In this document: positions 44,473-60,352 of the stretch, piece after piece
How positions within the stretch are numbered: the first letter of the stretch is position 1
Layout: every line of letters begins with the position of its first letter
NCBI GenBank assembly: GCA_028711115.1
Contig: JAQTSV010000001.1
Span: 838,032-902,031, forward strand
DNA from: Candidatus Omnitrophota bacterium
GTDB taxonomy: Bacteria > Omnitrophota > Gorgyraeia > Velamenicoccales > JABMQK01
DNA: 64,000 nt
Reading direction: 5' to 3'
The notes under the pieces: model-generated
Told to the model about the DNA's origin: nothing
The model's database searches: none
What the model saw: only the letters and a program-made list of their open reading frames with translations
Made by a program: the position numbers and the translations under genes

Positions 44473-44497
44473 TTTTACTTCTTGCTCCCATTTTTAA

Positions 44498-45808
44498 TTA
44501 CGCTATCCTTCTAAAACCTGAGTGACAAACAGGAATCTTTGAATATTTTTTGATTTTATTTTTTCTTATAACATTGGCAATAAAACCAAAGGCGTCATCA
44601 ACTGAGTTTAAATAATCTCTAACATTATTTATTTTATGTCCATAAGAAGCGTAAAATGACGTTGTAGCCAAAAATCCCTTTTCAAGCATTAATCTGGTAA
44701 ATAAAGTTTTTAAAATCAAGGGGTCTTTGTAGTTGAAAGTAAAATTAGTTAAAGGATAAATACCCGATATCGTTATGTTTAAATTATGTTTTTCTGCAAG
44801 TTTTTTCCAATTAATTTGTATTTCTTTGCCTATTCTGCTGAGATAATCCGGCACATCATTCTTTTTGAGTTTATTTATTGTAGCTAACGCTGCAGTGGGT
44901 CCGATTCTTTCTGTCCAGTATGTGCTGCTGATAAAAGTATCTTGTGCAGCTTGCATTATTTCTTTTCTTCCTATTATTGCAGCCATGGGATAGCCGTTAC
45001 TAATCGCCTTTGCAAATACGCACATATCCGGATAAACTTGGAATTTCAGATGTGCTCCGCCTATATGTAAACGCCAGCCAGATGTAATTTCGTCAAAAAT
45101 AAGAACAATATTCAATTTTTTGGTTACTTTTCTTATAGTTTCTAAAAAGCCTTTTTTAGGATAGTAACTTCTAATGGGCTCCATAACTACGGCTGCTATT
45201 TTATTTTTATTTGCTTTGATTAATTTCAGAAATCCTTCCGTGTCATTATAATTAAAAGGAATTGATGTATTGCGTAATTTTCTGGGCACACCTTTTGGTT
45301 GCAAGCCGGGCAGAAGGTGCCCGTCTAAAGATTTATCATTTGCTAAGTTTGAAGCTAAATACCAATCATGCCAACCATGATAGCCACAAAATAATATTAA
45401 ATCTTTATCAGTTTTGGCTCTGGCTATTCTTACGGCAATTGCCATGGCTTCACCTCCGCTGCGTGCATATCTCGCCATATCTGCCCACGGATGAATTTTA
45501 CATAATTCCTTGGCAAGTTCTACTTCTTCGGGGCAGTTTAAGGTAGCCATAGAGCCTTTATCTATAGCTTTTTTTATTTTATTATCAACGTCTTCATCGG
45601 CATAGCCCAATATGCAACTGCCAACACCCATGCTGCTCATATCGATATATTTGTTACCATCCAAATCCCATATCTCGCAACCTTTGGCTTTCTCATAATA
45701 AGCCGGCCATAAATTTGGTAGAAACATTTCTGGCCTCTTGGATAAAAGCTGGGTTCCGCCAGGTATTATCTTCTTAGCCTCTTTATAAAGATTTTGTGAT
45801 TTACCCAT
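44498..45808 (-). CDS. Class III PLP aminotransferase (glutamate-1-semialdehyde-aminomutase-like)
   Basis: 'RYARSGGEAMAIAVRIARAKT', 'FCGYHGWHDWY' and 'LIFDEITSGWR'. Confidence 0.75.
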   Translation of the reverse strand: MGKSQNLYKEAKKIIPGGTQLLSKRPEMFLPNLWPAYYEKAKGCEIWDLDGNKYIDMSSMGVGSCILGYADEDVDNKIKKAIDKGSMATLNCPEEVELAKELCKIHPWADMARYARSGGEAMAIAVRIARAKTDKDLILFCGYHGWHDWYLASNLANDKSLDGHLLPGLQPKGVPRKLRNTSIPFNYNDTEGFLKLIKANKNKIAAVVMEPIRSYYPKKGFLETIRKVTKKLNIVLIFDEITSGWRLHIGGAHLKFQVYPDMCVFAKAISNGYPMAAIIGRKEIMQAAQDTFISSTYWTERIGPTAALATINKLKKNDVPDYLSRIGKEIQINWKKLAEKHNLNITISGIYPLTNFTFNYKDPLILKTLFTRLMLEKGFLATTSFYASYGHKINNVRDYLNSVDDAFGFIANVIRKNKIKKYSKIPVCHSGFRRIA

Positions 45809-46588
45809 TTATTTATTCCTTTGTTTAGTACCTAGTATCTTATCCTCTTTTAAAGATTTCAAATAGCCTTCATTTCTTATAATGTTTTTATTCAATTCTT
45901 CTAATTCCGGATTAAGCTTTAAGAATTTCAGAATATCTCCCATATCAAAATTCGGGTTAATTGGATACAGCGATTCCAGTATGGTTTTTATCAATTTGAA
46001 ATCTGCTTCTGTATCTAAAGTCCATCTTTTTTTAGAAAGATTTTCTTTATTCTTAAAATTGATTAATTTAAATTTCTCTGGGTGCTTTTTTAAATATGGC
46101 GTGACGTGTTCTCTCTCTGATAAAAGACTTGAATTTTTCCAGGCATATTCCAAAGCATCAAAGCTAAACACTTCCACATCTTCTCCGTCGGGAAATGTTT
46201 CTTCTAAAGTATTGGAGCAATAATCTGCTTTGTTTTTAAAATAACAATGAACAACATCACTAATTATCCCTGGGTCTAGTAAAGGACAATCAGCTGTAAT
46301 TCTTGCTATATGCTGTATTTTAAATAATTTTGCTGCCTGATAATATCTGTCTAAAACATCGTCTTCAGATCCACGGTATAATTTTATATTTAGCCTACTG
46401 ACTAAATTAGCTATTGGTAAATCGCTTTCTTTTGTTGTAGTGGCCACGACTATATCTTCTATAGCTTTGGATTTCTTTACTCTTTCTACGGCATATTCCA
46501 ATATAGTTTTATCCATAACTTTTAATAACACCTTACCTGGTAGTCTGATAGCGCCAAATCTTGCTTGAATAATAGCGTGTGCTTTCAT
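45809..46588 (-). CDS. SpsF-type cytidylyltransferase (CMP-sugar-acid synthetase family)
   Basis: 'AIIQARFGAIRLPGKVLL', 'VVATT', 'RGSEDDVLDRY' and 'ARITADCPLLDP'. I chose the start at ATG 46588, which forms an ATGA overlap with the upstream stop. The track start is 46594. Confidence 0.7.
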   Translation of the reverse strand: MKAHAIIQARFGAIRLPGKVLLKVMDKTILEYAVERVKKSKAIEDIVVATTTKESDLPIANLVSRLNIKLYRGSEDDVLDRYYQAAKLFKIQHIARITADCPLLDPGIISDVVHCYFKNKADYCSNTLEETFPDGEDVEVFSFDALEYAWKNSSLLSEREHVTPYLKKHPEKFKLINFKNKENLSKKRWTLDTEADFKLIKTILESLYPINPNFDMGDILKFLKLNPELEELNKNIIRNEGYLKSLKEDKILGTKQRNK

Positions 46589-47484
46589 TTCCATTTATTA
46601 GGAATAATCACTTCTTCGTAGTCTAATTTTAGGGATTCCAATAAATCATAGATATTCTTTGTTTTATCTAGGTATTCAAAAGAATCTATGTTTTGTCTTA
46701 GTTGTTCTACAGAATCTACACCGATAATTACCTTATCTAAGAATGGATTTAATAAAACAAAACACAGACATAAAGCAAACAGAGGTATGTTATTATCTAT
46801 TGAAATACGACGTAATTTATTTATATTGTCTTTGGCTAATTGAAAATCCTTATTTATGATATCGGTTTCCAAGAAAAACAAACCCTGCAGGAAAACCGAT
46901 CTTGAATGGATTTCTGCTTTCATATTTTTTAGAACCGAGAAATATGTCTTAAACCTTTGATCAAAAATATTGTAGGGAATTTGGACAATGTCAAATTTAA
47001 TATTATTATTCAATAAATATTCCAATTCACTTACGTTATATAAAGATACGCCTATTTTTTCTACCAGGCCATCTTGTTTTAGAGATTCCAATATGCCCCA
47101 TATTTCTTTATTTTCTATTAAATTGTCAAATTTATGGATTAAATATCCGTATAGGGCTGGCTGTTTTAGATTATTGAGTGTTTTATGAAAATATTTTTCA
47201 ACATCTGAAATGCCTTTATCGCTTAGGTTAGGCAATTTAGAAATGATTTTAAAATAATTGCCGCTCTGGGCAATAAAATCGCCTATTAACTGCTCGCTGT
47301 TTCCATATGAGTAAGCTGTGTCTAAAGCATTTATTCCTTTTCCAAAAGCATATTCTAAAATATTGAAGATATCTTTTGGAGAAGGCTTTGGAGAACGATT
47401 TGCTATTCCGTATTTCATTCCAAATTGTGCTGTTCCTAAGACAATTCTTTTTATTGGCATAAAATTCTCTTTATATTTGAACAA
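46585..47484 (-). CDS. Aldo/keto reductase
   Basis: 'IVLGTAQFGMKYG', 'INALDTAYSYGNSE' and 'GVSLYN'. An ATG at 47460 (MPIKRIVLG) may be the real start. Confidence 0.7.
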   Translation of the reverse strand: MFKYKENFMPIKRIVLGTAQFGMKYGIANRSPKPSPKDIFNILEYAFGKGINALDTAYSYGNSEQLIGDFIAQSGNYFKIISKLPNLSDKGISDVEKYFHKTLNNLKQPALYGYLIHKFDNLIENKEIWGILESLKQDGLVEKIGVSLYNVSELEYLLNNNIKFDIVQIPYNIFDQRFKTYFSVLKNMKAEIHSRSVFLQGLFFLETDIINKDFQLAKDNINKLRRISIDNNIPLFALCLCFVLLNPFLDKVIIGVDSVEQLRQNIDSFEYLDKTKNIYDLLESLKLDYEEVIIPNKWK

Positions 47485-48590
47485 ATATACTCGACTTCTC
47501 TATTTGTTAAACCGGGAAACAAAGGTATGGTTATAGCTTTAGAATAGTATCTTTCTGCTTTCGGGTAATCACCTTTCTTATATCCAAGATTCTTCCTGTA
47601 ATATGGTTGTAAGTGAACCGGGATATAGTGCACCTGGATTCCTATATGATATTTTTTTAACTTATCAAATACAAATCTCCTCACAGAGGCATTTTTTAAT
47701 CTAATGCAATAAATATGCCAAGATGATTTTACGTAGTTTCTTTCTTTTGGCAAAATAATAGTACTGATTTGCGATAAATTACGGTCGTATAATTTTACAA
47801 TTTTCCTTTTTTTGTCTATAAATTTATCGATTTTACCTAGCTGGCTTATTCCTAAAGCACATTGAAAGTCGGTTATGCGATAATTGAAACCCAAATGCTG
47901 CATTTCATAATACCAACTACCAGTTTTCTTAATTTTTTTCCTGTCTTTAGCGATGCCGTGATTCCTGAGCAATAAAAGCCTTTTATATAAATCTTTTCTA
48001 TTCGTAAGAACGGCTCCTCCCTCGCCAGTTGTTATAGATTTTACGGGATGAAAACTAAATACAGCCATGTCAGAATATTTGCAGGAACCAATTTTTGAAT
48101 CTCTGTACTCTGCCCCTAATGCATGTGCGGCGTCTTCTATAACAATTAAATTGTGTTTCTTCGCAATACTCTGGATTCTTTTTAAATCGCAAGGATGACC
48201 AGCAAAGTGAACAGGAATTATTGCCTTAGAATTTTTAGTAATCTTATCAATTATTTCTTCTGGATCTATATTTTGCGTATCCTCTTGAATATCTGTAAAT
48301 ACAGGTTTTCCACCGCAATATAAAATACAATTCGCAGAAGCCACAAAAGTCATAGGCGAAGTAATAACTTCATCGCCTTTTTTTATTCCCGCAGCAAGGC
48401 AGGCAAGATGTAATCCGGCTGTTCCATTAGCTACTGCTACAGCGTATTTAGCTCCGGTGTATTTAGAAAGCGCGCATTCAAATTCATTAATTCTTGGCCC
48501 TTGGGTAATCCAATCGGAACGAAGCGTCTTAACAACCTGCCTGATATCGCTTTCATCAATACATTGGCGACTGTAGGGTATTAATTTCAT
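47451..48590 (-). CDS. pseC: UDP-4-amino-4,6-dideoxy-N-acetyl-beta-L-altrosamine transaminase (DegT/PseC type)
   Basis: 'IPYSRQCIDESDIRQVVKTLRSDWITQGPRINEFE' and the PLP-lysine region 'FSFHPVKSITTGEGG'. It follows pseB. Confidence 0.8.
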   Translation of the reverse strand: MKLIPYSRQCIDESDIRQVVKTLRSDWITQGPRINEFECALSKYTGAKYAVAVANGTAGLHLACLAAGIKKGDEVITSPMTFVASANCILYCGGKPVFTDIQEDTQNIDPEEIIDKITKNSKAIIPVHFAGHPCDLKRIQSIAKKHNLIVIEDAAHALGAEYRDSKIGSCKYSDMAVFSFHPVKSITTGEGGAVLTNRKDLYKRLLLLRNHGIAKDRKKIKKTGSWYYEMQHLGFNYRITDFQCALGISQLGKIDKFIDKKRKIVKLYDRNLSQISTIILPKERNYVKSSWHIYCIRLKNASVRRFVFDKLKKYHIGIQVHYIPVHLQPYYRKNLGYKKGDYPKAERYYSKAITIPLFPGLTNREVEYICSNIKRILCQ

Positions 48591-49564
48591 ATGCTCTCGA
48601 TCATCCTTTCAAGCTCTTTTTTTGTAAGCCACAGATTATTATTGTCGCTTGTATATTTAAAACCTTCTGCCAAATGTTTTCCCTTCTTAAAATTATCCAC
48701 TCTCCACCAAGGATGTTCCGGCTCTACAATAAAATAATCAGCGAATTTTAATGTATGCCTGGATTCATCTTTGGTTATCAAACATTCATGAATTTTCTCG
48801 CCCGGGCGGATTCCTATATATCTAACTTTACATTTAGGGGCGATTGTTTTTGCCAAATCTACAATCTTCATACTGGGAATCCTGGGAACGAAAATCTCTC
48901 CTCCATGCATCATTCCAATAGATTTTATTACAAATTCCACGCCCTGTTCTAAAGTCATCCAAAAACGTGTCATTTCTTTATCAGTGATGGTAATAGTCCC
49001 TATTTTTTTCTGTTCTTTTAATAAAGGCACAATACTTCCTCTGGACGCTACGACGTTACCGTATCTTGTACAAGAAAGTTGTGTTTGCCTTTGTTTTCCT
49101 ACATAAGAATTTGCGGCGACGAATAATTTTTCCATGCACATTTTAGTAGCGCCATACAGATTCACCGGGTTTACTGCCTTATCGCTGCTTATAGCCATCA
49201 CTTTTTCAATATTATGATCTATCGCCGCATCAATTACATTTTGCGCGCCCATAATATTAGTCTTTATAGCTTCGAAAGGATTATATTCACAAAGGGGGAC
49301 TTGTTTTAAGGCTGCAGCGTGGACAACTATATGTGCGCCGTCCATTGCACGTTTTAATCTGTCTTTATCGCGCACATCTCCGATGAAAAATCTCAAACCT
49401 TTAACATTATTAAATTTTTTCTCCATTTCCCACTGTTTTAATTCATCGCGGCTGAAAATTCTGATGACTTTCGGCTTATGTTTTTTAATCATAATTTCGG
49501 TAAATTTCTGGCCAAAGGAACCTGTACCGCCAGTCAATAAAATAATCTTCTTGGACCAATCCAT
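48587..49564 (-). CDS. pseB: UDP-N-acetylglucosamine 4,6-dehydratase (inverting), PseB/FlaA1 type
   Basis: 'KIILLTGGTGSFGQKF' and 'YGATKMCMEKLF' (YxxxK). The track start (49615) is a TTG extension. ATG at 49564 has 'AGAGAGGA' 6-7 nt upstream. Confidence 0.8.
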   Translation of the reverse strand: MDWSKKIILLTGGTGSFGQKFTEIMIKKHKPKVIRIFSRDELKQWEMEKKFNNVKGLRFFIGDVRDKDRLKRAMDGAHIVVHAAALKQVPLCEYNPFEAIKTNIMGAQNVIDAAIDHNIEKVMAISSDKAVNPVNLYGATKMCMEKLFVAANSYVGKQRQTQLSCTRYGNVVASRGSIVPLLKEQKKIGTITITDKEMTRFWMTLEQGVEFVIKSIGMMHGGEIFVPRIPSMKIVDLAKTIAPKCKVRYIGIRPGEKIHECLITKDESRHTLKFADYFIVEPEHPWWRVDNFKKGKHLAEGFKYTSDNNNLWLTKKELERMIESI

Positions 49565-49589
49565 TGTTATCCTCTCTTTCTGATTTAAT

Positions 49590-50234
49590 CTAAATACAGT
49601 TCTTAATATATTCAAATACTCCCCTCATATTCTTAAAGCTGCTCTTTTTTGGTATATTGGGTAAATTGGAATTGTCATCTTTTATCCTAGCGATAAATTT
49701 CACGCCTATTTCTTTTGCAGCATTAAAATCATTGACAGAATCACCGATAAAAACAACTTCGGAGGTATTATAATTATTTTTTCTTAGTATATTAGTTATC
49801 AAATCTGTTTTTTTATCCGGAGAACCGTATATTTCCGTAAAGTATTTTTCTAACTTTCTGCGTTTTATTATTTCTTTAATTTCTTTTTTCGGCGTCCCCG
49901 AAATTACAAACATTTCGTAACGACCGTAACATCTATCTAAAAGTTCTTGCGCACCTTCTACTAAAGGAGAGCGGACCACCTTATCTACTACTAATTCACT
50001 AAAACGCTTACCCAGTTGATTGAATTGAGCTTCACTTAATTTTTCTTTAATGATATTCTGGTAAATAAACCTAAATTTATCATAACGAGATATACCGCCA
50101 TTATTAATATGATATTCTATTATTGCCTTTAAGCATTGTGGATAATCTTTAAATAATGTTCTGAAAGCCCCTGTCTTTATTTCTACAGATTCAGCAATTA
50201 CTCCATCAAAATCAAAAATAATACTTTTAATCAT
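49590..50234 (-). CDS. HAD-superfamily phosphatase
   Basis: Motif I 'IIFDFDGVIAES' and motif IV 'FIGDSVNDFNAA'. Confidence 0.75.
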   Translation of the reverse strand: MIKSIIFDFDGVIAESVEIKTGAFRTLFKDYPQCLKAIIEYHINNGGISRYDKFRFIYQNIIKEKLSEAQFNQLGKRFSELVVDKVVRSPLVEGAQELLDRCYGRYEMFVISGTPKKEIKEIIKRRKLEKYFTEIYGSPDKKTDLITNILRKNNYNTSEVVFIGDSVNDFNAAKEIGVKFIARIKDDNSNLPNIPKKSSFKNMRGVFEYIKNCI

Positions 50235-50961
50235 TGGCTTTCATTCCTTTGTGGCCTAAATGATCTACAATAAAATTCAACCACTCGATGTCTTCTGGCG
50301 TATGTACATCTACAAAACAATTTCGATTATGATAATCCTGGATTATCCCTTTTATTCTTCTTCCTAAATAATTCCATGGTTTTATTCCTTTATCTCTATT
50401 TTGCCAAGAGCTATACCTGAAGCATTCTACTGTATGATCAATTTCGTAAGCTTCGCTGTCTTGACGAGAACCAGAGGCTTTAGATTGTATTTGGGGAAAA
50501 TAAGGGACGAGCTCATTGTTTCTTATCGTCATTAATGCCTCGGGTATATAACCAGTTCTTCTGATAGTGACAACTGAGTCATATTGCAAATTTTCTAAGA
50601 GAAAATTAATGCTTTTATCAAATATATCCGGGTCTCTGAACGGAACAACGCATTGAGGCATCGCTATAATCTCTAAATTGTCATATTTATTCTTGATATA
50701 ATTTATGGCGTGATCTACGGCTTCCATGAATTTTTCATTCTTGGCTAATTCATTGTCCCTGAATATTATTTCTGCGCCAGATTTGCTGCCGATTTCAGCG
50801 GTCTTTTTGCCGTTCGTACTTACGAAAATTTTATCTACAGTTTTGGATTTCTTTCCGTCTTCTATTGTCCATTCAAGCAAAGTTTTATCTTTGATCGTCC
50901 AGATATTTTTACCGGGTAAACCGATACTGCCTTCTTTTGCCATAATCAAGATGATATTCAT
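50227..50961 (-). CDS. Acylneuraminate-cytidylyltransferase-family enzyme (CMP-nonulosonate synthetase), a PseF candidate
   Basis: 'IILIMAKEGSIGLPGKNIW...KTLLEWTIEDGKKSKTVDKIFVSTN...IIFRDNELA'. Confidence 0.65.
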   Translation of the reverse strand: MNIILIMAKEGSIGLPGKNIWTIKDKTLLEWTIEDGKKSKTVDKIFVSTNGKKTAEIGSKSGAEIIFRDNELAKNEKFMEAVDHAINYIKNKYDNLEIIAMPQCVVPFRDPDIFDKSINFLLENLQYDSVVTIRRTGYIPEALMTIRNNELVPYFPQIQSKASGSRQDSEAYEIDHTVECFRYSSWQNRDKGIKPWNYLGRRIKGIIQDYHNRNCFVDVHTPEDIEWLNFIVDHLGHKGMKAND

Positions 50962-52931
50962 TTCTTCCCTTCAGTTGTAAGCGCCATATCAACAAAACTG
51001 AAAAAATTTGATTTATATTCCTTGGGATATCTGTAATCTACCAAATCCTCATTTTTTAACGGATTGTTTTCAAAAATATTAAAAATTCTACGTATTCCCT
51101 GGGCAAGCAACAGCGGATTTGTTAAATAGTACACAGGTTTTTTTGTCATTGTTTGTACATCTTTTGTTTCTTCAATATTAAAATGGTTATACCTTTGCCA
51201 CTTGTCAAATAAAACTACGGGTATTCCATTCTGAAGCGCCTCTTCTATGCAAGTCGAAGAATAACTGACTAGAAGATCAGCAATGGAAAGCATGTCTGAA
51301 AATGGCCCATTATTCAATATCCTCAACCTATTACAAATTGGTAAAGATTTGAGAAAATCCTCTTCGCTAAGGTCACAGGCAGGATGTGGACGTATAATTA
51401 AAAATACATCTTCTAAACTTTTAATGGCATTGACTAGATCAAAAATGGCTGAAATATATTCATCCAAAGTCTCTGTAATATGAAAGCGCATGCCTGTGCG
51501 TAATTTCTGTGTGGTAGCATGAACAATAATCTTCCCAAAGCCTTGTATTCCAAGAATCTCTTTCCTTAACGATTTTCTTATTTTGTCTTTTTTTTCTGAG
51601 TATAGTAATGGTCCACTAAAAATTCGGGGTCTCTTATCACCATAATAATCTAGGAATTTTCCAGCCCATGGCGTCTGAACGGCCACATATTTATAATCGT
51701 TCAGAATAACTCCTGTCCCCAGATGATAATTCTCTATTTTTTCGAATTCATTATTGGGCGGCACATGAGTCCCATGGCTTATGTTTAATGAATAGAAGCC
51801 AAATTGATGGCTAATTTCTCCCATTGCTTGATATATTCCCCTGCTGTACATGGCCATTAAAAGCCTGGGATGCAGTTGTTGCAAGATATTACGTAAAACA
51901 AGGGTTGTATGTTGCAATGAAATAACTTTTGGCTTTAAACCATTTTCTACTTTTTCTGCCAAATAATGGTGGAATGGAATTTTGTCATAAACCAGCAAGT
52001 CTCTTAATTCTGAATTTATTGCGTTTACAAAATTGTCGAATTCTTTCCTGAAATTATTTTGTTGACTAAGATCTCTTTTAAAAATATTCCTAATTAAATC
52101 TAGGTTGATAATTGCATCGAGTAGATTTTCTTTCTTGAGCCTTTTTAAGAAATTTGTCAGTAGTAAATATATTTTAAATATTTCTCTTCTTAGATTAGAC
52201 TCTTCCTCCCAGATCATAATACATCTAACATCGGGATGTTGTTTCTTGATATCCTTTAACAAATTACCCATATTATAAGATGCGGCAGGAACTATAATAG
52301 TTTTTGTGTCCATCTTTTTTCTCAAGGCAAAGAATTTGTACTCTACAAACGCTAAAAACATGGCAACTTGATAAGTAATTCTTGTTGCAATTATATTAAG
52401 AAAATTCGAATGTTTATTTTTTAAAGGTTGTTCATAGAAATTGATTCCGTTAATTTTACAAAAATCTTTTGCTAAAATACCTAAAAATCTTTCCTCGTTT
52501 TGTATAGGGGCTTTCTTAGAATACATATTCTTTTGTTTTTTAGGCAGACAACAATAAAACCCGGCAACAGGGTGTTTGTCTTTAATGCCCTTAAGGATCT
52601 CTATATTGCAAAGGAAATGATTAAGATACATCCGTAGATGGTGAACGCATAGTTCCCTGTATTCTTTTTCTAAATTAAAACCATCCTTTAAATGTAGCTT
52701 TTGCATAAGCCGTGCCGTAAGCTTATCGACAGTTAATATAATCCGATGCTGTGCATTATTGTCCAAATAATCAACTGTACCTTTTGAATCTATGCCTTTA
52801 TTTTTTAGAAAAACACGGATATGCGGATGCAGGCATACAGTTATAGTGTCTTTTGATAAAAATAGACCTTTTCCGTATTTATTCAATAAAATCTTGGCCT
52901 CATCCACAAATTCTAGCAATATTATTTTCAT
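50958..52931 (-). CDS. Large uncharacterised protein with a GT-B/TagF-like C-terminal domain
   Basis: 657 aa. 'LIIRPHPAC' is followed about 42 aa later by 'ADLLVSYSSTCIEEALQNGIPVVLFD'. Confidence 0.3.
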   Translation of the reverse strand: MKIILLEFVDEAKILLNKYGKGLFLSKDTITVCLHPHIRVFLKNKGIDSKGTVDYLDNNAQHRIILTVDKLTARLMQKLHLKDGFNLEKEYRELCVHHLRMYLNHFLCNIEILKGIKDKHPVAGFYCCLPKKQKNMYSKKAPIQNEERFLGILAKDFCKINGINFYEQPLKNKHSNFLNIIATRITYQVAMFLAFVEYKFFALRKKMDTKTIIVPAASYNMGNLLKDIKKQHPDVRCIMIWEEESNLRREIFKIYLLLTNFLKRLKKENLLDAIINLDLIRNIFKRDLSQQNNFRKEFDNFVNAINSELRDLLVYDKIPFHHYLAEKVENGLKPKVISLQHTTLVLRNILQQLHPRLLMAMYSRGIYQAMGEISHQFGFYSLNISHGTHVPPNNEFEKIENYHLGTGVILNDYKYVAVQTPWAGKFLDYYGDKRPRIFSGPLLYSEKKDKIRKSLRKEILGIQGFGKIIVHATTQKLRTGMRFHITETLDEYISAIFDLVNAIKSLEDVFLIIRPHPACDLSEEDFLKSLPICNRLRILNNGPFSDMLSIADLLVSYSSTCIEEALQNGIPVVLFDKWQRYNHFNIEETKDVQTMTKKPVYYLTNPLLLAQGIRRIFNIFENNPLKNEDLVDYRYPKEYKSNFFSFVDMALTTEGKK

Positions 52932-55075
52932 TTATTAGAATCAAATGATGTACAGATAAACTCTGGGGAATAAGCCCCAGAATTCTTAAAAGTATCTTTT
53001 TCTTTTTTTAAATCGACCACCTTGTCGCTTCCCCAGCACGTTCGATATCTATTAATTGCTATTTCCATAGCATCCTGGCCACCCATTCCCTTATCAAATG
53101 CATCCAACAGCCAATTTATAAAATTTCCTATTCTTACCGAAGCATTCCCATCCCTAAAAGCATCAATTTCTTTAAGAATAAAGGAAAAATCTCCTATATT
53201 AGTTTTGTTATGTCTATTGCGGCGAAATTCTCCGATAGCCTGAATCATTTGGCCTAAATCGTCAAAAACAACTCTTCCTATGCCTTTTTTATACAACGGA
53301 TGGTTAACAGAGGATAAAGGATCAAAGGTTATGCCGGGTACGCCAGAAATCAATGCCTCTGTTACGGGAGTACTGGAAACTCCGATACCTATGGCTAAAT
53401 CAGAGGCATAAGCAGCTTCGCAGGGAAAAATGTCACCTTCTAAAACAATACATCTACCGGTAGCAATTGCTTGGTTGAGCAAGCCAACCAACAATGGTAA
53501 TTTGTCTTCGATATTAATGAGTTTCTTGGGCTTAATGATGAGCCCCATAGTTTTATCATCCATAACTTCTTTCAGAAGAAATTTATACATTTTTTCTATT
53601 CCTTTTGTCCAGCCAGGTCTTAAATCAGAACAGTTTTGATCAAAGAAACTAACAATAAATTCAGCACCGCTATCTATAAGTTTGCTTCGATAACGTTTTG
53701 ATTTCTCCTTGCATCTTGTAAAAAAACTATCGTAGGGATAACCCGAATACACCAATCTATCGATAGGATAAAAAATATTATCAAAGAAATTGTCTTTAAA
53801 AAATTGGCCCCAAGAAAAATAAACATCATAAGGTTTTCCCGTATAAACTGTTACAAAATCAAAATTTGACCAATGGGTACCTATATCAATACCTTTTACA
53901 AGTTCGATAGCAATATTGGCCGAACTCATATCTTTCCCCGCCTCATATTGACCGAAATGAACTTTGATATTATAAGTGATAAAAAAAGACTCAAAGAAAT
54001 CAACCGTATTTAAAAGTATGGTTAAATTCTTCCAATACCAAAAATAGATTTTGTCATTCTTGAATAGACAATAAAAAAACAGCCGTAATGTTATGGCCAA
54101 TGTTTTTAAGGATTTTTTCAAATATATAGTGGACGGGAGTCTGTTTAATTCCATTGTTCCAAAAAGATATTTTTTGTTCCCGAGCTTCCACGGCAATAAA
54201 TTAACCCAGGTTATATTATTCTGTTCAATAAACTTTATAATTTCAGCGTTAGGAGAACGTACCGAGTATTTAAAATATAGGATAATTTTACTGGGATTAA
54301 TACCGGAATTAGGATACCAAAAATAATCAGTCTTCTTTTCTAAATTAGCCCCCTGTACGTATAGCACAGCAACTTTTGAATCTTTTGCTGAGTTTTTTGT
54401 AATAATGCTTTTACCAATCAATACCAAGAACAAATTGGCAATTATCTCAATAAAAATCTTAATTGGATAATAAAACATGCTGATGATTTCTTTAAAATTA
54501 AGATATGTATAAAGCCTGATATTGTTGTTTTCGTAATATGAGCGGATATGTGGTATCCAAAAATTATCAGTAACTATTATTAAGTTATACGAATAGGTTA
54601 AATTCTTATTGTTAAGGCAAAACGATTTTACATGGTTGCATAGCTTAACTATATTTTCAATCTCGCGTGAGATCTCTTGTTCAAAAAAGAAAGAAATCTT
54701 TTCTCTGCTGTATCTCGGATTTATATTCTTAAGCAAAGAGCTATATTTATTCGAGGAGCAGATTCTAATCTGTTTATAAATTAAAGAAACAATGTCGTCA
54801 TATGCTTTAATATCGATTTCTTTTTCTTCTTTTGCGGAAATTAAACCTTCTGCTGAAAAAATACATTTCAATTTAAATATGTTGTTATAATATTTTTCGA
54901 TAAATGTCTTTACAAACGGAGCGATTGTCATATATCTTAATTCTACAATTTCATATTTTAGATTTAATCTTCTTAATTTTGAAAATGAAAAAAGAGTTAA
55001 TCTGTCAAACCAGCAGATACATTGTTTTCTAGTTTTCTTATTTTTAAATTTTGTCAATTCTTCTGTACTAAACAT
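52928..55075 (-). CDS. Large uncharacterised protein with a weakly GT-B-like C-terminal region
   Basis: 715 aa. It has a central hydrophobic stretch and 'ASDLAIGIGVSSTPVTEALISGVPGITFD'. The HP motif is absent ('LIIKPKKL'). Confidence 0.25.
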   Translation of the reverse strand: MFSTEELTKFKNKKTRKQCICWFDRLTLFSFSKLRRLNLKYEIVELRYMTIAPFVKTFIEKYYNNIFKLKCIFSAEGLISAKEEKEIDIKAYDDIVSLIYKQIRICSSNKYSSLLKNINPRYSREKISFFFEQEISREIENIVKLCNHVKSFCLNNKNLTYSYNLIIVTDNFWIPHIRSYYENNNIRLYTYLNFKEIISMFYYPIKIFIEIIANLFLVLIGKSIITKNSAKDSKVAVLYVQGANLEKKTDYFWYPNSGINPSKIILYFKYSVRSPNAEIIKFIEQNNITWVNLLPWKLGNKKYLFGTMELNRLPSTIYLKKSLKTLAITLRLFFYCLFKNDKIYFWYWKNLTILLNTVDFFESFFITYNIKVHFGQYEAGKDMSSANIAIELVKGIDIGTHWSNFDFVTVYTGKPYDVYFSWGQFFKDNFFDNIFYPIDRLVYSGYPYDSFFTRCKEKSKRYRSKLIDSGAEFIVSFFDQNCSDLRPGWTKGIEKMYKFLLKEVMDDKTMGLIIKPKKLINIEDKLPLLVGLLNQAIATGRCIVLEGDIFPCEAAYASDLAIGIGVSSTPVTEALISGVPGITFDPLSSVNHPLYKKGIGRVVFDDLGQMIQAIGEFRRNRHNKTNIGDFSFILKEIDAFRDGNASVRIGNFINWLLDAFDKGMGGQDAMEIAINRYRTCWGSDKVVDLKKEKDTFKNSGAYSPEFICTSFDSNK

Positions 55076-55645
55076 TTATATTTCCTTCGTCTTTATAAAA
55101 CTAATAAGTTTTTTTATACAAGTTTTTAAATCATATTTTTCCGTATCTAATACCAAATCCGCATTTTTAGGCATCTGATAGGGTACATTTTTATCAATAC
55201 CGATAAAATTTTCTATCTTTCCGGATAAGGCTTTTTTATACAGCCCCTTGGGGTCTCTTTTAATAACAGTTCCAAGCGAAGCTTTACAATAAATCAAATA
55301 TAGCTGCTCTCCAATTGTGCTTTTTACCTGCTGCCTGGACTCCTCAAACGGAGAAATAACTGTTACAAAAATATAATCATATTTTTTCTTATTGATTTCT
55401 TGTTTACAAATCTCAGCTATTATCCTATTGTTTTTCTTAATGTGTTTTGGTGTAAATTTCAGGTGTCTATTCAGTTTTTGTCTTACAATATCGCCATCAT
55501 AAATTTTGATTTTTTTCTTTATTTTTGAAAGTGATTTCTTAGTTTCATTGGCAATGGTTGTTTTTCCAGAACCAGAAAGACCTGTAAACCAAAAAACTAG
55601 AGTTTTTTTATTCAACAAAGACCTTCCCTCCTTCTTTAATTTCAT
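55076..55645 (-). CDS. cysC: Adenylyl-sulfate (APS) kinase
   Basis: P-loop 'FWFTGLSGSGKTTIA' and 'DGDIVRQKL'. An 'AAGGAGG' followed 7 nt later by TTG at 55618 is an alternative start. Confidence 0.85.
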   Translation of the reverse strand: MKLKKEGRSLLNKKTLVFWFTGLSGSGKTTIANETKKSLSKIKKKIKIYDGDIVRQKLNRHLKFTPKHIKKNNRIIAEICKQEINKKKYDYIFVTVISPFEESRQQVKSTIGEQLYLIYCKASLGTVIKRDPKGLYKKALSGKIENFIGIDKNVPYQMPKNADLVLDTEKYDLKTCIKKLISFIKTKEI

Positions 55646-57788
55646 TTAGAACAAAGTCCGAAACTTCTTTTCTCATAAACCAGTCGGGAGGAGCTTTTTT
55701 AAAACCAAACATTTCTCTCGCATGTGTACCGCTTATCTCTGATATATTTTTATTATTATGTTTGCACTGCTCAACGTATTTACAGCATTTCTTGCAATAA
55801 TGCATTTCATTAAAAAATATCGGGACTATTCCAATATCTCCGAGATAATTGAAAAGCTTATGGGCATCGTCTTGTTTATAGTGGTTACCTACTCCCGTAT
55901 GATCTCTGCCAACAATAAAATGGCTGCATCCGAAATTCTTTCTGCACAAAGCCGTGAATACCGCTTCCCTTGGCCCGGAATATCTTGAATAATTCTGAAA
56001 AGCAGCCAAAAAAACCTTACCTTTAGGATAATACTTTTCTATCATTAGTTCATAGCTTCTCAGGATTACATCTGCCGTATAATCGCCTTTCTTTTTCGGG
56101 CCTATTACAGGATGGATAAAAAGACCGTCGCAGTGATATTTTTCAAAAGCAAGCATTTGAATATATTCATGAACACGATGAGCCACATTTCTTGTATGAA
56201 AACCAACCACCCTGTGCCATCCTTTATTTTCAAAAATTAATCTTGCTTGTCTCGGTGTTATTTCAAAATGTTTATATTTTGAAGGGAGGCGTTCGATTAA
56301 ATCTACTTTTCCGCTGAGAAAATATTCTCCTCTTCTTTTCAATTGCTGAACTCCGTAATGACTTTCATCATTGGTTCTAAAAGTTTCTCTTGCCATTTTA
56401 TCTAAATCGTAAGTATAAATTTCTTCTAAATTCAGTATAGAGAATGCTTTATTAGTGTTTCTCAAAACCAATGCAATTTTATTTCCGGGTTTAAATTTAC
56501 CAATATATTTTCTATCTACTTGTAAGAAAATTGGTAACGGCCAAACAACTCCGTTGGGGAGTTTGTAATTTTTGAGCACAGAATTAATTTCTTCCTTATT
56601 CATAAAACCCTGCAAAGGAGAAAAGGCGCCAATTGCAATCTGTTCAGCATCCAATAAAACAGTTTCATCTACGATTAATGTTTTATATTTATTTATTTCT
56701 TTGATATTTGGTTCCCTGACAACTCTGTTTACAAGAGTACCTCCATGCGGTTCTATTAATACGTATGAATCACTATCTTGTAAATTATCGAGAGAGTGAT
56801 TACGAGAAAAATCGAGGCATTGTTTAATCATCTTAGAAATCATCACTGTACAATTTATAGGATATGCTCCGATTGCGGTTTCAGCAGCAAGTACTAAGCC
56901 ATCTGCGCCATCGAGTAAAGTATTTATAACGTCATTTGCTTCTGCTCTCGTAGGTTTTTTGCTCCTAACCATTGACTCAAGTAAATTTGTAGCCACATAT
57001 ACAGGTATTTTCTTCTTATTTACCTTATTTATAATTAGTTTTTGAATGAGCGGTATTCTTTCTATAGGTTCTTCTCTGGAGAGATCTCCTCTGTCTATAA
57101 GTATAGAATCAGAAACGCTAATTATACCGTCGATATTCTTTACGCCTTCCCTATTTTCTATCTTGGAAATTATGTGAGCATTTTTTCCTAATTGACTACG
57201 GAAATATTCAACACTTTTTCTGTCAGAGGCAAATGACAAAGCAAAATATTGCAGACCGTGTTTTAGCCCGATCTTGATAGCTTCTTTATCTTTTTCAGAA
57301 ATCACTGGTAATTGTATATTTCTATCGACGGTTGCTGCTTTATTGCTTCCAATATAACCGTCAGCAACAACCCTTGCTGTTACGGAATCAAGATTCGTTT
57401 TAATAATTTGCAACAGCACAGATTCAAAGTCGATGCTAATCAAATCGCCAATCCTTAGTTCCCTGACAACAAAATTAGGGGTAAATGAAATCCTGCGAGA
57501 ATTACCGACTATATTTTTCTTTGTTATCTCAATCAAACTGTTTTCTTTTAAATAAACCTTATTATTTTCTACAAATCCGTTACGAATTTGGGCGCCTTCT
57601 GTATCAAGACACAATGGTTTATTCGTAAATCGCTTTATAGATAGTATTAAATTTTCCAAATCTTTTATTTCTGTATGAGAAAGGTTTAAACGAAAGATAT
57701 CCACCCCCAAAGAGTCCAATCTTAAAATAGTTCTTTCATCTATGGAAGAAGGACCAAGTGTACATAATATTTTTATCTTTTTTTTCAT
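55608..57788 (-). CDS. sat: Fusion protein: pyruvate-kinase-like catalytic barrel (about aa 1-335) joined to sulfate adenylyltransferase / ATP sulfurylase (about aa 340-726)
   Basis: PK half: 'KILCTLGPSS', 'FRLNLSHT', 'LDTEGAQIR', 'ISKIENREG', 'IDRGDLS', 'PTRAEANDV' and 'LAAETAIGAYP'. Sulfurylase half: 'EPHGGTLVNR', 'GAFSPLQGFM', 'GFHTRNVAHRVHEY', 'HPVIGPKKKGDY' and 'GPREAVFTALCRKNFGCSHFIVGRDHTGVG'. The frame is continuous. Confidence 0.8.
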   Translation of the reverse strand: MKKKIKILCTLGPSSIDERTILRLDSLGVDIFRLNLSHTEIKDLENLILSIKRFTNKPLCLDTEGAQIRNGFVENNKVYLKENSLIEITKKNIVGNSRRISFTPNFVVRELRIGDLISIDFESVLLQIIKTNLDSVTARVVADGYIGSNKAATVDRNIQLPVISEKDKEAIKIGLKHGLQYFALSFASDRKSVEYFRSQLGKNAHIISKIENREGVKNIDGIISVSDSILIDRGDLSREEPIERIPLIQKLIINKVNKKKIPVYVATNLLESMVRSKKPTRAEANDVINTLLDGADGLVLAAETAIGAYPINCTVMISKMIKQCLDFSRNHSLDNLQDSDSYVLIEPHGGTLVNRVVREPNIKEINKYKTLIVDETVLLDAEQIAIGAFSPLQGFMNKEEINSVLKNYKLPNGVVWPLPIFLQVDRKYIGKFKPGNKIALVLRNTNKAFSILNLEEIYTYDLDKMARETFRTNDESHYGVQQLKRRGEYFLSGKVDLIERLPSKYKHFEITPRQARLIFENKGWHRVVGFHTRNVAHRVHEYIQMLAFEKYHCDGLFIHPVIGPKKKGDYTADVILRSYELMIEKYYPKGKVFLAAFQNYSRYSGPREAVFTALCRKNFGCSHFIVGRDHTGVGNHYKQDDAHKLFNYLGDIGIVPIFFNEMHYCKKCCKYVEQCKHNNKNISEISGTHAREMFGFKKAPPDWFMRKEVSDFVLNEIKEGGKVFVE

Positions 57789-57809
57789 CTTTTAATTCTT
57801 AAATATTTA

Positions 57810-58778
57810 TTAAAACAATTTTCCTTTTTCATGAAGCGATGCTAAACGCATCATCAATTTAAACATTTTAGGAGAAGCCATTTTTTTAATGAACAGCATC
57901 TTTTTCTTTCTTTCTAATGGGTCTATTTTTCTATTACAATTTTCCCTGGCGAGAATCGTTGACATCGATTCAGAAGGAATTGTGTTTAAAAATAATCCCG
58001 CCTTCTTTACAACAGCCCATGAATCTTCTATTAAATCTTCATAAGTAACAAACAAAATATTTTTTTTATGTTTAAGCGGAAGAAGGCCGTAAGCATTTTG
58101 TGATATTTCAGTTATGATTTCTATGCTTTTAATTATGCGATCCATTCTTGATAATTTTATATATTCATCACTCCAGTTATATGCATACCAAGGAATAGTC
58201 TTGTTATTTATATTAACACAAGGGGATAAGTAAAGCGGATCGGAAATTTCCCTACCCCCAAAACCTCTAAGATACCAAGAATACATGATATCTATCGGGT
58301 GTCTTATAATATGAATCATTTTGAAATCAGGAAACGATTTAAAGAATATATTTATGCAAGGTAGGACTTCGTGCGTTACAAATACGGATATTCTTTTATC
58401 TTTATTTATTGCCTTAACGGTCTCTTTGCGATCTTTATCTTGGCTAAAAGTTTTTAATAAATACCTTCCGAGATCGGGGTATTTGAATATGGAGGAACCA
58501 TCGTTATAACGAAAGTTTAAATTCCTACCTATTCCTATATTATATACCCATTGGTCTACCATTATCTGCAACAGAGAAATTGCAGTATCTTCCCTAATAG
58601 CTCCTAATTTTTCTAAATAAGGGATTATTTCTATTAAATCAACAGCCTGAAAATGTTCTGTGCTCTTCAACCCGTCAATAATCCGTCCCAGGAAGAACTT
58701 TCCAGAACGAGTAATACCATCTAATATAACTAATTTCTTGACTAAAAGGTTTTTAGTGGCGACTTTAATTTCCTGCAT
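57810..58778 (-). CDS. Sulfotransferase-family protein
   Basis: 5'-PSB-like 'LDGITRSGKFFLGRI' and 3'-PB-like 'IHIIRHPIDIMYSW'. It lies directly upstream of sat and cysC. Confidence 0.55.
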   Translation of the reverse strand: MQEIKVATKNLLVKKLVILDGITRSGKFFLGRIIDGLKSTEHFQAVDLIEIIPYLEKLGAIREDTAISLLQIMVDQWVYNIGIGRNLNFRYNDGSSIFKYPDLGRYLLKTFSQDKDRKETVKAINKDKRISVFVTHEVLPCINIFFKSFPDFKMIHIIRHPIDIMYSWYLRGFGGREISDPLYLSPCVNINNKTIPWYAYNWSDEYIKLSRMDRIIKSIEIITEISQNAYGLLPLKHKKNILFVTYEDLIEDSWAVVKKAGLFLNTIPSESMSTILARENCNRKIDPLERKKKMLFIKKMASPKMFKLMMRLASLHEKGKLF

Positions 58779-58935: not shown

Positions 58936-59730
58936 TTACTTAAATGACTTAAAGAAATCGATATCCCAACTCGCCATATCTATGCTACATTTCTGCATTG
59001 TTGATCGTGCATCTGTAAGACCATCTTCAATAAAATTAAACAAATTAGCGGTAGATACAGCATCTGCTTTGCCTTGTAATATCCCGTCAGTAAAATGATT
59101 GAATTTCCCTATTCCGCCAGAGGCAATTAAAGGAACCATTGAGACCTCGGATATTTTTTTAATTATATCTAAGTCGAGGCCTTCTCCGGTACCATCGTTA
59201 TCCATAGAAGTTAAATAAATCTCTCCACAATTTAGTCTCTCGGCCTTTTTTACATGCTCTTCCACAGTTAAGCCTGTAGAATGACTGCCGTCGTGTATAA
59301 AAGTTTCCGTGTGTCTATCGTGTTTCTTATAATCAATGGAGGCCACTATGCACTGGCTGCCGAATGTCTTAATAAACGAAATTACAAGTTCAGGATTAGT
59401 TATAACTGGGGTATTGATGACTAATTTATCAGCTCCAGCGTCAAGTATCATATAGGCATCTTCTATTGAACGTATACCTCCTCCGGCAGCAATCGGCATA
59501 AAGCACCTTTTGCTTAACTCTATAAGGTTACGTGAAAATTCCTTAACGTCTTTTTTCTCTCTCTCCACATTAAAAACAATTAGCTCATCGATAGAAAAGG
59601 CTATGGCGTCAAAATTATAGCATTCCCTTATCCAATCAATATTCCCTACCGACTGCAGAGAGAAATTCCTACTTAGCATATAAACGCCATTTTGCATTAA
59701 CAATGTAAAGATTAATCGTTTCTTTAGCAT
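58936..59730 (-). CDS. hisF: HisF-like cyclase subunit (WbuZ-type glycosyl-amidation partner)
   Basis: 'PIAAGGGIRSIEDA', 'GADKLVINT' and 'PLIASGGIGKFNH'. It lies in a glycan locus beside hisH-like and WbuX-like genes, so it is probably not the histidine-pathway copy. Confidence 0.8.
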   Translation of the reverse strand: MLKKRLIFTLLMQNGVYMLSRNFSLQSVGNIDWIRECYNFDAIAFSIDELIVFNVEREKKDVKEFSRNLIELSKRCFMPIAAGGGIRSIEDAYMILDAGADKLVINTPVITNPELVISFIKTFGSQCIVASIDYKKHDRHTETFIHDGSHSTGLTVEEHVKKAERLNCGEIYLTSMDNDGTGEGLDLDIIKKISEVSMVPLIASGGIGKFNHFTDGILQGKADAVSTANLFNFIEDGLTDARSTMQKCSIDMASWDIDFFKSFK

Positions 59731-59734
59731 ATTC

Positions 59735-60352
59735 TTACAGTTGGCAAAAATTCCTTAATACTACGAGTCCGTTACTTAAACTCTTTTCTGGATGAAACTG
59801 CGTGCCAAAGATATTCTTGTATTGAACACTTGCAATAAACCTCTCTCCGTAATTAGCCCATGAAGAACTATATTTCTCCTGTTCAAGACAAACCATCCTG
59901 TAGCTGTGCACAAAATAAAAATCCGCGCTTTCTCCTAACCCCTTAAATAAATTAACCGGGGTGCCCTGAAAATAAACCCTGTTAAAACCGATATGTGGAA
60001 TCTTAATACCCAATACTTGTGCCGGAAATCGTTTTGCTGCAGCTGGAATCCAGCCAAAACCTTTGGTCAACCCGTCTTCCTCCCCTTCATCAGCAAAAAG
60101 TTGCATCCCAAGACAAATACCTAAAATATAGTTCTTTTTTATAAGCACAGCTTCATTTATTGCATCAAAAAGGCCTCTATTTTTTATGTTATCCATTGCC
60201 ATGCGAAATGAGCCCACTCCCGGAAGTATTAATTTTTCGCTCTCTAAAATCTCAGCGGCAGAATTCACGATTCGGCAATCAACTTTTATAAAATTAAGGG
60301 CATTATACACAGAACGAATATTGCCCATCCCGTAATTGATTATAGAGACCAT
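59735..60352 (-). CDS. hisH: HisH-like glutamine amidotransferase subunit (WbuY-type)
   Basis: 'MVSIINYGMGNIRSV', 'LPGVGSF', the nucleophile 'GICLGMQL' and 'QFHPEKS'. The track start (60397) is a TTG extension into the upstream gene. I use ATG at 60352. Confidence 0.8.
   Translation of the reverse strand: MVSIINYGMGNIRSVYNALNFIKVDCRIVNSAAEILESEKLILPGVGSFRMAMDNIKNRGLFDAINEAVLIKKNYILGICLGMQLFADEGEEDGLTKGFGWIPAAAKRFPAQVLGIKIPHIGFNRVYFQGTPVNLFKGLGESADFYFVHSYRMVCLEQEKYSSSWANYGERFIASVQYKNIFGTQFHPEKSLSNGLVVLRNFCQL

Follow-up and report, generated by a model that had tools for sequence, protein, structure and literature searches.

Gene organization and distribution of P1 and P2

The stretch of DNA analysed here, 64,000 nt from a Candidatus Omnitrophota bacterium (contig JAQTSV010000001.1, positions 838,032 to 902,031; hereafter the window), represents one large surface-glycan locus in which all 58 long open reading frames (ORFs) lie on the minus strand. 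Our subject is a pair of consecutive genes within it, P1 (50958-52931, 657 aa) and P2 (52928-55075, 715 aa), whose products are modelled with the fold of GT-B glycosyltransferases. P1 carries HP and SS-T motifs of the sialyltransferase/TagF type and is a candidate cytidine monophosphate (CMP)-ulosonate glycosyltransferase, while P2 belongs to a large uncharacterised family with a 'KPK' variant that lacks the HP histidine. As already noted in an earlier reading of the letters without database searches (the original prediction), the two genes overlap by 4 nt; the shared letters of the P2 stop and the P1 start are ATGA. The P1 stop and the start of the downstream cytidylyltransferase gene likewise overlap as ATGA, and the ATG of P2 directly abuts the stop codon of the upstream adenosine 5'-phosphosulfate (APS) kinase gene. 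An 84-aa ORF on the plus strand (50726-50980), antisense within the cytidylyltransferase gene and reaching the P1 stop region, is most likely spurious.

The original prediction described the two genes as extremely AT-rich orphans, and neither term could be kept as it stood. GC contents of 33.0% (P1) and 31.8% (P2) fall within the range of the window genes (per-gene mean 34.1 +/- 2.8%; 24th and 14th lowest of 58), and AT-richness was dropped as a mark of the pair. The term orphan holds only in that neither P1, which shows sub-threshold local matches, nor P2 scores as high as the cut-off of any curated Pfam or NCBIfam model, and that the identical NCBI entries from a Candidatus Omnitrophica metagenome-assembled genome (MAG), PHS93_04475 and PHS93_04480, are both named 'hypothetical protein'. 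Homologs of P1 numbered 47 at identities of 34-60%. In species-representative genomes a pattern-seeded scan gave 40 P1 loci, with close relatives in Omnitrophota-type MAGs. Full-length relatives, spread over more than 12 lineages of phylum rank, had 25-29% identity and came, by their MAG labels, from Deltaproteobacteria, Brocadia, Flavobacteria, Clostridia, Ignavibacteriae, Alphaproteobacteria, Saganbacteria, Aminicenantes, Elusimicrobia, Margulisiibacteriota and WOR-1, and partial matches were found elsewhere. For P2 a word-indexed search returned 9 homologs, and an exhaustive profile search of a library of 1.84 billion representatives clustered at 50% identity gave a family of 2,093 members with a threshold of E<=1e-3 and of 985 with one of E<=1e-30. 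Among the 150 P2 relatives listed, the majority were full-length (~680 aa). Because both genes have many full-length homologs, the ORFs are not chance features.

A 19-residue Kyte-Doolittle scan found no segment above 1.5 in P1 and a single hydrophobic helix in P2 (residues 207-225, score 2.23). This helix was not called as a transmembrane segment, as the conserved charged or polar residues K206, E210 and N214 flank it or lie inside it.

Predicted folds

AlphaFold2 models were built from family alignments and compared with the PDB using Foldseek. The P1 model was very confident (predicted local distance difference test, pLDDT, 92.5; predicted template modelling score, pTM, 0.91) and the P2 model usable (pLDDT 75.7, pTM 0.79). 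P1 gave 183 PDB matches at E<=0.001, and the best 50 of these listed were all GT-B-fold proteins, headed by UDP-GlcNAc 2-epimerases including NeuC (5xvs, E=2.5e-9, TMt ~0.6) and continuing with CalG1, PimB', BshA, MshA and GtfA; the GtfA/B complex 5e9t was among them. The 37 matches of P2 at the same threshold were GT-B proteins as well, including NeuC/WecB (5xvs, E=8.6e-6), HepE, trehalose-6-phosphate synthase and SPY/OGT. TarL (8va1, E=5.4e-4) and TagF (3l7l, E=1.6e-3) stood lower among the P2 matches. Since ~470 of the ~660-715 residues align, both proteins are modelled as GT-B cores with large helical insertions, in which the second of two predicted Rossmann-like domains, at the C-terminus, would bind the nucleotide. 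UDP-GlcNAc 2-epimerases share the GT-B fold, and the fold alone therefore cannot separate a transferase from an epimerase or hydrolase.

Conserved motifs and family relationships

The sequence motifs that had been read from P1 by eye were located precisely. RPHP occupies residues 514-517 (codons 51381-51392, minus strand) after a predicted strand at 509-514, VSYSSTCIEEALQNGIPVV starts at residue 555, and the spacing from His516 to Ser558 is 42 residues, as originally proposed. The HP motif is a predicted CMP-phosphate contact, and the SS-T loop S556-Y-S-S-T-C-I-E-E564 (codons 51240-51266, minus strand), followed by a helix at 559-567 in the model, is a predicted phosphate/ribose-binding element. 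We counted conservation over 29 full-length homologs from different species and phyla. R514, P517, S556, S559, T560, E564, D490, E491, D576, Y581 and H583 were kept in all 29, H516, E7, E11 and R580 in 28, S558 in 27 and H386 in 24. P1 has two acidic pairs, D10-E11 (before A12) after strand 1, with E11 in 28 of 29, and the invariant D490-E491, neither of them followed by Gly.

Below their cut-offs, two models of putative surface-sugar transferases matched P1 over the motif-bearing residues 488-580, namely BFO_1060_trans (NF046086; 29.5 bits, cut-off 200; residues 499-577 only) and TIGR04396 (28.3 bits, cut-off 125). Weak matches of the same kind ran through the P1 family, where 38 of 41 members matched TIGR04396 (all sub-threshold, best E=3.2e-9), 35 BFO_1060_trans, nine TIGR04326 and seven LIC12162. 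Some P1 relatives had precomputed matches to PF27859, marked 'weak' where a strength was shown, and P1 itself had none to LIC12162 (TIGR04331). P1 also matched Epimerase_2 (PF02350) at 22.5 bits (cut-off 30.6) over profile positions 186-290, which represent only the nucleotide-binding half. The Glyphos_transf (PF04464) and Capsule_synth (PF05159) models, put forward earlier as a check, gave no match to P1 or P2 even at E<=10, and neither did Maf (MptE-like/DUF115, PF01973); one P1 relative, P0046, had a precomputed Glyphos_transf match. Sequence searches of the PDB with either protein or three family profiles found no relatives, the matches being due to chance alone (an engineered meganuclease and a designed coiled coil).

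In P2 the prediction that only the second half of the motif pair is kept was borne out. GVSSTPVTEAL lies at residues 565-575 without a matching HP motif, and K515-P516-K517-K518 (codons 53522-53533, minus strand) takes the HP position. Its degenerate SS-T loop with a conserved glutamate, S567-S-T-P-V-T-E573 (codons 53357-53377, minus strand), aligns with SYSSTCIEE of P1. Across 146 proteins of the P2 family G445 was invariant; D479, D642 and R648 were found in 145, D559, E573 and R541 in 142, K515 in 126 and K517 in 124. T569 was T or S in 142 members and S568 was present in 57. No histidine reached 90%, H401 being His in 32 and Gln in 100 of the 146. These near-invariant polar residues indicate that P2 is under strong selection with an altered active-site composition and is no decayed copy, and P2 is probably an active enzyme of the same superfamily. 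Against Pfam and NCBIfam P2 gave noise only (DUF5461, RNase RNM) and no Epimerase_2 match. Weak matches among its relatives were to BFO_1060 (2 of 10 close and 7 of 52 distant relatives; P2 itself none) and TIGR04417 (PFTS motif protein/PF27878; 1 of 10 close and 7 of 52 distant relatives, best E=2.1e-11; P2 none). The relative P0055 had a precomputed 'weak' PF27878/TIGR04417 match, and some P2 relatives also matched TIGR04396 below its cut-off.

The families of P1 and P2 could be aligned with each other by hhalign (E=7.7e-4, weak), with 264 colinear columns covering P1 333-635 and P2 348-632. RPHP stood opposite KPKK and SYSSTCIEEA opposite GVSSTPVTEA. A third protein of the superfamily, 578 aa long (26839-28575, minus strand), carries KPHP at 455-458 and SGSS at 496-499 and ends a KdsB-type/HpcH-aldolase module. 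It aligned with the broad P2 family (probability 86%, E=4.9e-6), again with KPHP opposite the P2 KPK, and matched TIGR04326 (52 bits) and BFO_1060 (28 bits), both below cut-off. The two independent profile alignments concur, so that K517 of P2 would stand in place of the HP histidine. From these profile comparisons P1 and P2 are distant paralogs that form separate families beside the named models. The original count of three related proteins alongside three cytidylyltransferases was confirmed.

Gene linkage across genomes

Linkage was assessed in 25 species genomes, in each of which the P1 homolog was full-length and flanked on both sides by 5 kb or more. In 17 of them the gene next downstream of the P1 homolog was a CTP_transf_3 cytidylyltransferase, and in 20 such a gene lay within 6 kb. 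A P2-family gene was found within 6 kb in 19 genomes, 15 times upstream on the same strand, and 24 of the 25 had at least one of P2, cytidylyltransferase or NeuB near the P1 homolog. Among related loci in other genomes (L-numbers), L007 shared the order of the window at 50-79% protein identity: sulfotransferase, pyruvate kinase (PK)/ATP-sulfurylase, APS kinase, P2, P1 and cytidylyltransferase, continuing as in the window with HAD, PseB, PseC, an aldo-keto reductase and a cytidylyltransferase. P1 and P2 homologs were adjacent or nearly so in L025 (Omnitrophota), L033 (Clostridia) and L034 (Aminicenantes). In Brocadia the order was P2-like, Wzx, methyltransferase, P1-like and a short CTP_transf_3 gene, so that the linkage was kept at 28% identity.

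Two stricter rules were rejected. Obligate co-occurrence of P1 and P2 does not hold, as L008 and L009 have P2 with no P1 detected in the 8-kb flanks and 6 of the 25 P1 loci are without a P2-family gene within 6 kb. A strict 1:1 pairing of GT-B proteins and cytidylyltransferases, with three of each in the window and in L007, fails in distant loci, several of which have two superfamily GT-B proteins and one or zero cytidylyltransferases in their 6-kb flanks.

The upstream neighbours of P2 varied between loci and comprised sulfation genes (window, L007, L008), phosphonate genes (L005, L006) and nonulosonic acid (NulO)/amidotransferase genes (L009, L001). The phosphonate cassette (L005 5299-9994, L006 1138-3041) lies directly upstream of the P2 homolog, where the window has its sulfation cassette. 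It encodes a phosphoenolpyruvate (PEP) mutase fused to a nucleotidyltransferase domain, a thiamine pyrophosphate-dependent decarboxylase, a nucleoside triphosphate (NTP)-transferase and an aminotransferase. In the Candidatus Brocadia locus L021 the P1-linked short cytidylyltransferase gene is followed directly by a gene (8701-10437, plus strand) for a 578-aa fusion protein and then by one for a PfkB kinase. The fusion combines an HMGL-like (pyruvate carboxyltransferase/aldolase-type) domain with the MptE-like/DUF115 domain known from Maf flagellin NulO transferases.

Cytidylyltransferases and sugar pathways of the window

The window encodes three CTP_transf_3 cytidylyltransferases (50227-50961, 45809-46594 and 32067-32831, minus strand). 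The first of these, a short protein of 244 aa (CTP_transf_3 E=1.4e-14), is the presumed maker of the CMP-sugar donor of P1. Its best NCBIfam model was PseF (60.7 bits, cut-off 205.7), which makes it the most PseF-like of the three, and it has counterparts at 67-78% identity in related loci. The following gene (49590-50234, minus strand) encodes a 214-aa HAD-family phosphatase (HAD_2 E=5e-23) that travels with the P1-cytidylyltransferase unit in close relatives; the order P1-cytidylyltransferase-HAD is kept in L002, L003, L007, L011, L017 and L019.

A pseudaminic acid (Pse) pathway region (36110-49615, minus strand) extends from PseB to PseI. It encodes PseB (48587-49615; 489 bits, above cut-off), a PseC-type aminotransferase (47451-48590; Pfam), the second cytidylyltransferase (45809-46594), a WbuX amidotransferase (43384-44472; above the NCBIfam cut-off), GNATs (41248-42361; Pfam), a PseG-like protein (38972-39919; 136.6 bits, just below the cut-off of 153.6) and PseI (36110-37141; 468 bits, above cut-off), all on the minus strand. 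Between PseI and a PIG-L deacetylase gene lies a 149-aa ORF (37138-37587, minus strand) that looks GNAT-like by eye and might be a PseH. Formyltransferases are also encoded in the window.

The third cytidylyltransferase (32067-32831, minus strand) is of the KdsB type, above its NCBIfam cut-off, and lies beside an HpcH/HpaI aldolase. It is part of a module (29566-34562, minus strand) of HpcH/HpaI aldolase, methyltransferase, KdsB-type cytidylyltransferase, 2-hydroxyacid dehydrogenase, 'cyclase' and epimerase that recurs in L001-L005, L010, L011, L017 and L019. The module appears suited to the synthesis of a CMP-activated 3-deoxy-ulosonic acid, with a class II pyruvate aldolase replacing a NeuB/KdsA-type synthase. 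In relatives the module is closed by a 666-667-aa protein with no Pfam match (L001 20812-21974, L002 20128-22013, L003 15394-17279, L004 20845-21962), a place taken in the window by the 578-aa GT-B relative. When the visible part of this protein was compared by tblastn with P1, P2 and the 578-aa GT-B relative, nothing matched at E<=1e-5, and it may represent another unrecognised family.

Assembly machinery

The assembly genes (14014-19104, minus strand) include a Wzx flippase (14014-15318; Polysacc_synt E=5.6e-30), a GT4 (16100-17275; Glycos_transf_1 E=7.9e-36) and a Wzy-like protein (17272-19104; Wzy_C weak, E=6.7e-5). The window has two GT4s and two GT2s. The combination of Wzx, Wzy-like and GT2/GT4 genes favours assembly by repeat units over a dedicated cytoplasmic polymerase. 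No Maf, Capsule_synth or sialyltransferase match was found among the scanned window genes (six genes at 188-7402 and one at 62971-63960 were unscanned or matchless), which agrees with the original statement that no other recognised nonulosonate transferase is present.

Comparison with known transferases

The closest functional parallel comes from Tannerella forsythia, where deletion of Tanf_01245 or TFUB4_00887, both BFO_1060 homologs, removes the terminal Pse or legionaminic acid (Leg) derivative from the O-glycan (PMC5420450). Both enzymes carry D/E-D/E-G and HP motifs, and knowledge of cognate NulO transferases was described as scarce in the same work (PMC5420450). Like P1, the Tannerella enzymes are GT-B/TagB-like, have the HP motif in a C-terminal CMP-binding region, lack transmembrane segments and are encoded next to NulO genes. 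In contrast to them, P1 aligns with BFO_1060 over ~80 residues only, and both P1 and P2 are far longer than the 365-position model, with large helical insertions; the Tannerella enzymes further decorate a protein O-glycan, whereas the locus of the window looks like one for a Wzx/Wzy polysaccharide. In Herbaspirillum, a 'surface carbohydrate biosynthesis protein' (TIGR04396-type) and LIC12162-family genes lie beside neuABC (PMC6679464). TIGR04396, TIGR04331/PF27859, TIGR04326 (LIC13510) and TIGR04417/PF27878 are uncharacterised putative transferases whose C-terminal motif region is common to P1, P2 and the 578-aa protein; all four carry NCBIfam names that point to the biosynthesis of surface carbohydrates or polysaccharides, and all matches to them were well below cut-offs. 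In the literature on TIGR04396, LIC12162, LIC13510 and PFTS we found no demonstrated activity beyond the Tannerella work and one comparative-genomics mention.

With the bacterial sialyltransferases and polysialyltransferases of families GT80, GT52 and GT38, P1 has in common the fold class, an HP motif followed ~42 residues on by an SS loop, and acidic residues that might serve as the base. In Pasteurella PmST1 the SS phosphate-binding loop follows the HP histidine by ~42-44 residues. P1 contains the sialyltransferase-type HP motif, while P2 has K517 at this site, and the Ser-Ser/Thr loop expected ~40-45 residues after the histidine is present in P1 (S558-S559-T560, 27-29 of 29 homologs) and degenerate in P2. 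A CMP-sugar donor is a feature of sialyltransferases that P1 would share. P1 differs from them in having no detectable sequence similarity to solved sialyltransferases and in its acidic pair, which is D10-E11-A and not D/E-D/E-G.

Proposed functions and alternatives

We consider it reasonably probable that P1 and P2 are distantly paralogous cytoplasmic GT-B transferases that act on one Wzx/Wzy surface polysaccharide, with P1 as a NulO-type enzyme and Pse as its probable donor. The stretch of P1 that bears the motifs is the same stretch that matches BFO_1060 and TIGR04396, and the linked cytidylyltransferase is PseF-like, which together suggest a CMP-ulosonate transferase. P1 is most likely a sialyltransferase-like GT-B enzyme using a CMP-ulosonate, and the donor in this locus is most likely a Pse derivative. 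The original proposal that the genes are candidates for Pse/ulosonate transferases has thus gained support from fold, motifs, the weak BFO_1060/TIGR04396 match and the PseF-like linkage, with the Pse donor and the activity itself still inferred.

In the proposed mechanism, the donor is a CMP-activated ulosonic acid, and the C-terminal Rossmann domain of P1 would hold its CMP moiety via the R514-x-H516-P517 loop, the S556-x-S558-S559-T560 loop and E564. A residue of the N-terminal half, either E7, D10 or E11 after strand 1 or H386 or H389, might activate the acceptor hydroxyl, and the acceptor would be a lipid-linked repeat unit. The donor would be the product of the translationally coupled PseF-like cytidylyltransferase, a Pse derivative made via the neighbouring PseB/C/G/I. 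P2 would be a second transferase in which a conserved lysine replaces the HP histidine at the leaving-group contact. It might add a different residue, possibly from a CMP-sugar made by one of the other two cytidylyltransferases.

Several observations weigh against these assignments. The likeness of P1 to NulO-transferase families is confined to ~90 C-terminal residues and scores far below the model cut-offs, and sequence relatives in the PDB were missing for both proteins. The top fold matches are epimerases rather than transferases with moderate TM-scores, and no sialyltransferase structure was among the best 50 listed P1 fold matches. P2 is without the HP histidine, and its neighbourhood changes between sulfation, phosphonate and amidotransferase cassettes. 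The P1-linked cytidylyltransferase is far below the PseF cut-off and aligns with the N-terminal ~130 Pfam profile positions only. In many related loci this gene is followed by an HpcH-aldolase/KdsB-type module in place of Pse genes, and the donor may therefore be a different ulosonic acid.

The kind of enzyme proposed here, an HP-motif GT-B transferase of NulO type, is known; the two families lie outside every curated model, and no characterised member of them was found. Little is known of the enzymes by which pseudaminic, legionaminic and other bacterial sialic-acid-like sugars are joined to polysaccharides, and P1 represents a widespread, concrete candidate. If transfer were shown, the surface-glycan loci of uncultured phyla would gain annotations for thousands of genes now called 'hypothetical'. 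The P2 family is very large and has no curated model, and its His-to-Lys change would help to show how GT-B enzymes stabilise the nucleotide leaving group.

A bolder extension, which we regard as doubtful though worth stating, is that P2 and P1 form a conserved two-enzyme module from Omnitrophota to Brocadia, Bacteroidota, Clostridia and Aminicenantes, in which an HP enzyme and a histidine-less KPK enzyme would work in tandem on CMP-ulosonates. An analogy, just as tentative, would be an initiator/extender pair such as KpsS/KpsC. KpsS and KpsC are a pair of related HP-motif CMP-ulosonate enzymes of GT-B type that initiate and then extend, KpsC having ~675 aa. P1 and P2 resemble them as a conserved related pair and in size, but differ in having no Capsule_synth match and no internal duplication and in lying in a Wzx/Wzy-type rather than an ABC-transporter-type locus. 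If the tandem arrangement is true, each of the two proteins would stand for a new glycosyltransferase family, and the sialyltransferase-type GT-B site would gain a new variant of its catalysis.

The original prediction offered polymerases of a new family as its second option. One or both proteins would then be processive enzymes of the TagF/TarL or polysialyltransferase type that make a homopolymer or phosphodiester polymer from a CMP- or CDP-donor, which we regard as unlikely. With 657 and 715 aa the proteins are large compared to the ~360-380-aa GT-B chains that they matched, and HP-motif GT-B enzymes do include polymerases. TagF, TagB and TarL, which are teichoic acid CDP-glycerol/ribitol phosphotransferases, are GT-B-like with catalytic histidines in both halves and a motif of the basic-x-H-P type. 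The TarL and TagF structures appeared among the fold matches of P2, P0046 had its Glyphos_transf match, and in L005 the P2 and P1 homologs are separated by an ABC transporter. The option is nevertheless weakened by the Wzx flippase, the Wzy-like polymerase and the several single-addition GT2/GT4 enzymes of the window. Wzx lies between the pair in Brocadia as well, and a Wzy_C-like gene precedes the P1 homolog in L004. P1 and P2 themselves have no sequence match to Glyphos_transf, and no genes for CDP-glycerol or CDP-ribitol synthesis were recognised among the window genes scanned.

About as unlikely, or slightly more so, is that P2 moves an anionic substituent that is no sugar, or a residue meant to receive such a substituent, for instance as a TagF-like phosphotransferase using a CMP/CDP-linked phosphonate or a polyol-phosphate in place of an ulosonic acid. 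In L005 and L006 the P2 homolog comes right behind the PepM/phosphonopyruvate decarboxylase/nucleotidyltransferase/aminotransferase cassette, and in the window, L007 and L008 sulfation genes are what precedes it directly. These positions would fit such a function, as would the TarL and TagF fold matches; the KPK change suggests another arrangement of the donor phosphate. On the other hand, the sulfation cassettes bring their own sulfotransferase, the P2 homolog of L009 follows a NulO cassette in the absence of sulfation and phosphonate genes, and the adjacency could be mere module order, with no sequence link to Glyphos_transf.

An obligate complex of P1 and P2 is improbable. In it P2, as a GT-B protein without catalysis of its own, would play the part that GtfB has for GtfA and either stabilise P1 or present the acceptor. 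Such a complex would agree with the P2-then-P1 order kept by adjacency or ATGA overlap in several lineages, with the loss of the HP histidine in P2 and with GtfA/B (5e9t) among the P1 fold matches. The near-invariant charged residues of the P2 family are atypical for a decayed site, though, and the P2 homologs without a detected P1 (L008, L009) as well as the six P1 loci without P2 argue against an obligate partnership.

Least probable of all is a role in precursor synthesis as GT-B-fold nucleotide-sugar epimerases or hydrolases (NeuC/LegG/WecB-like or PseG-like): UDP-GlcNAc 2-epimerases including NeuC, which have the strand-then-His nucleotide-binding arrangement in common with P1 and P2, are the best structural matches of both and Epimerase_2 weakly matches P1, but this match stays below 30.6 bits and within the C-terminal nucleotide-binding half, the established Pse pathway requires no 2-epimerase and the PseG-like protein makes an extra hydrolase unnecessary, the genomic role being filled or unneeded, genuine Epimerase_2 genes stand beside the P2 homologs of L005 and L009, and the sequence-level matches point to transferase-type families.

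Sulfation, amidation and further genes of the locus

Directly upstream of P2 lies a sulfation cassette (55076-58778, minus strand) with three genes, for APS kinase, for a fusion of PK-barrel, PUA_2 and ATP-sulfurylase domains and for a sulfotransferase. L007 has this cassette in unchanged order, and in L008 a sulfotransferase gene adjoins the P2 homolog. The fusion protein (55608-57788, minus strand; 726 aa), which joins a pyruvate-kinase barrel, PUA_2 and ATP-sulfurylase and is followed by APS kinase, is also present in L007 (5336-7471, 711 aa) and represents an unusual joining to a sulfate-activation enzyme. A second, weak sulfotransferase-like gene (25624-26823, minus strand; Sulfotransfer_3 28 bits) is located directly downstream of the gene for the 578-aa protein, and the glycan may therefore carry sulfate at more than one position.

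Two N-acetyl-sugar amidotransferases of the WbuX type, each scoring higher than the NCBIfam cut-off, are encoded at 43384-44472 and 60370-61542 (minus strand), and a HisF/HisH-like pair at 58936-60397 (minus strand). Together these genes suggest acetamidino-modified sugars. In L001, L007 and L009 the HisF/HisH/WbuX trio is again encoded upstream of the P2 homolog.

The glycan locus further encodes three B12-binding radical S-adenosylmethionine (SAM) enzymes (8571-11048, 20155-21540 and 61557-62945, minus strand). One of them is 825 aa long and combines two stretches of radical-SAM type with a SPASM domain, and similar genes were found in L001, L002 and L004. These enzymes may modify sugars, for example by C-methylation.

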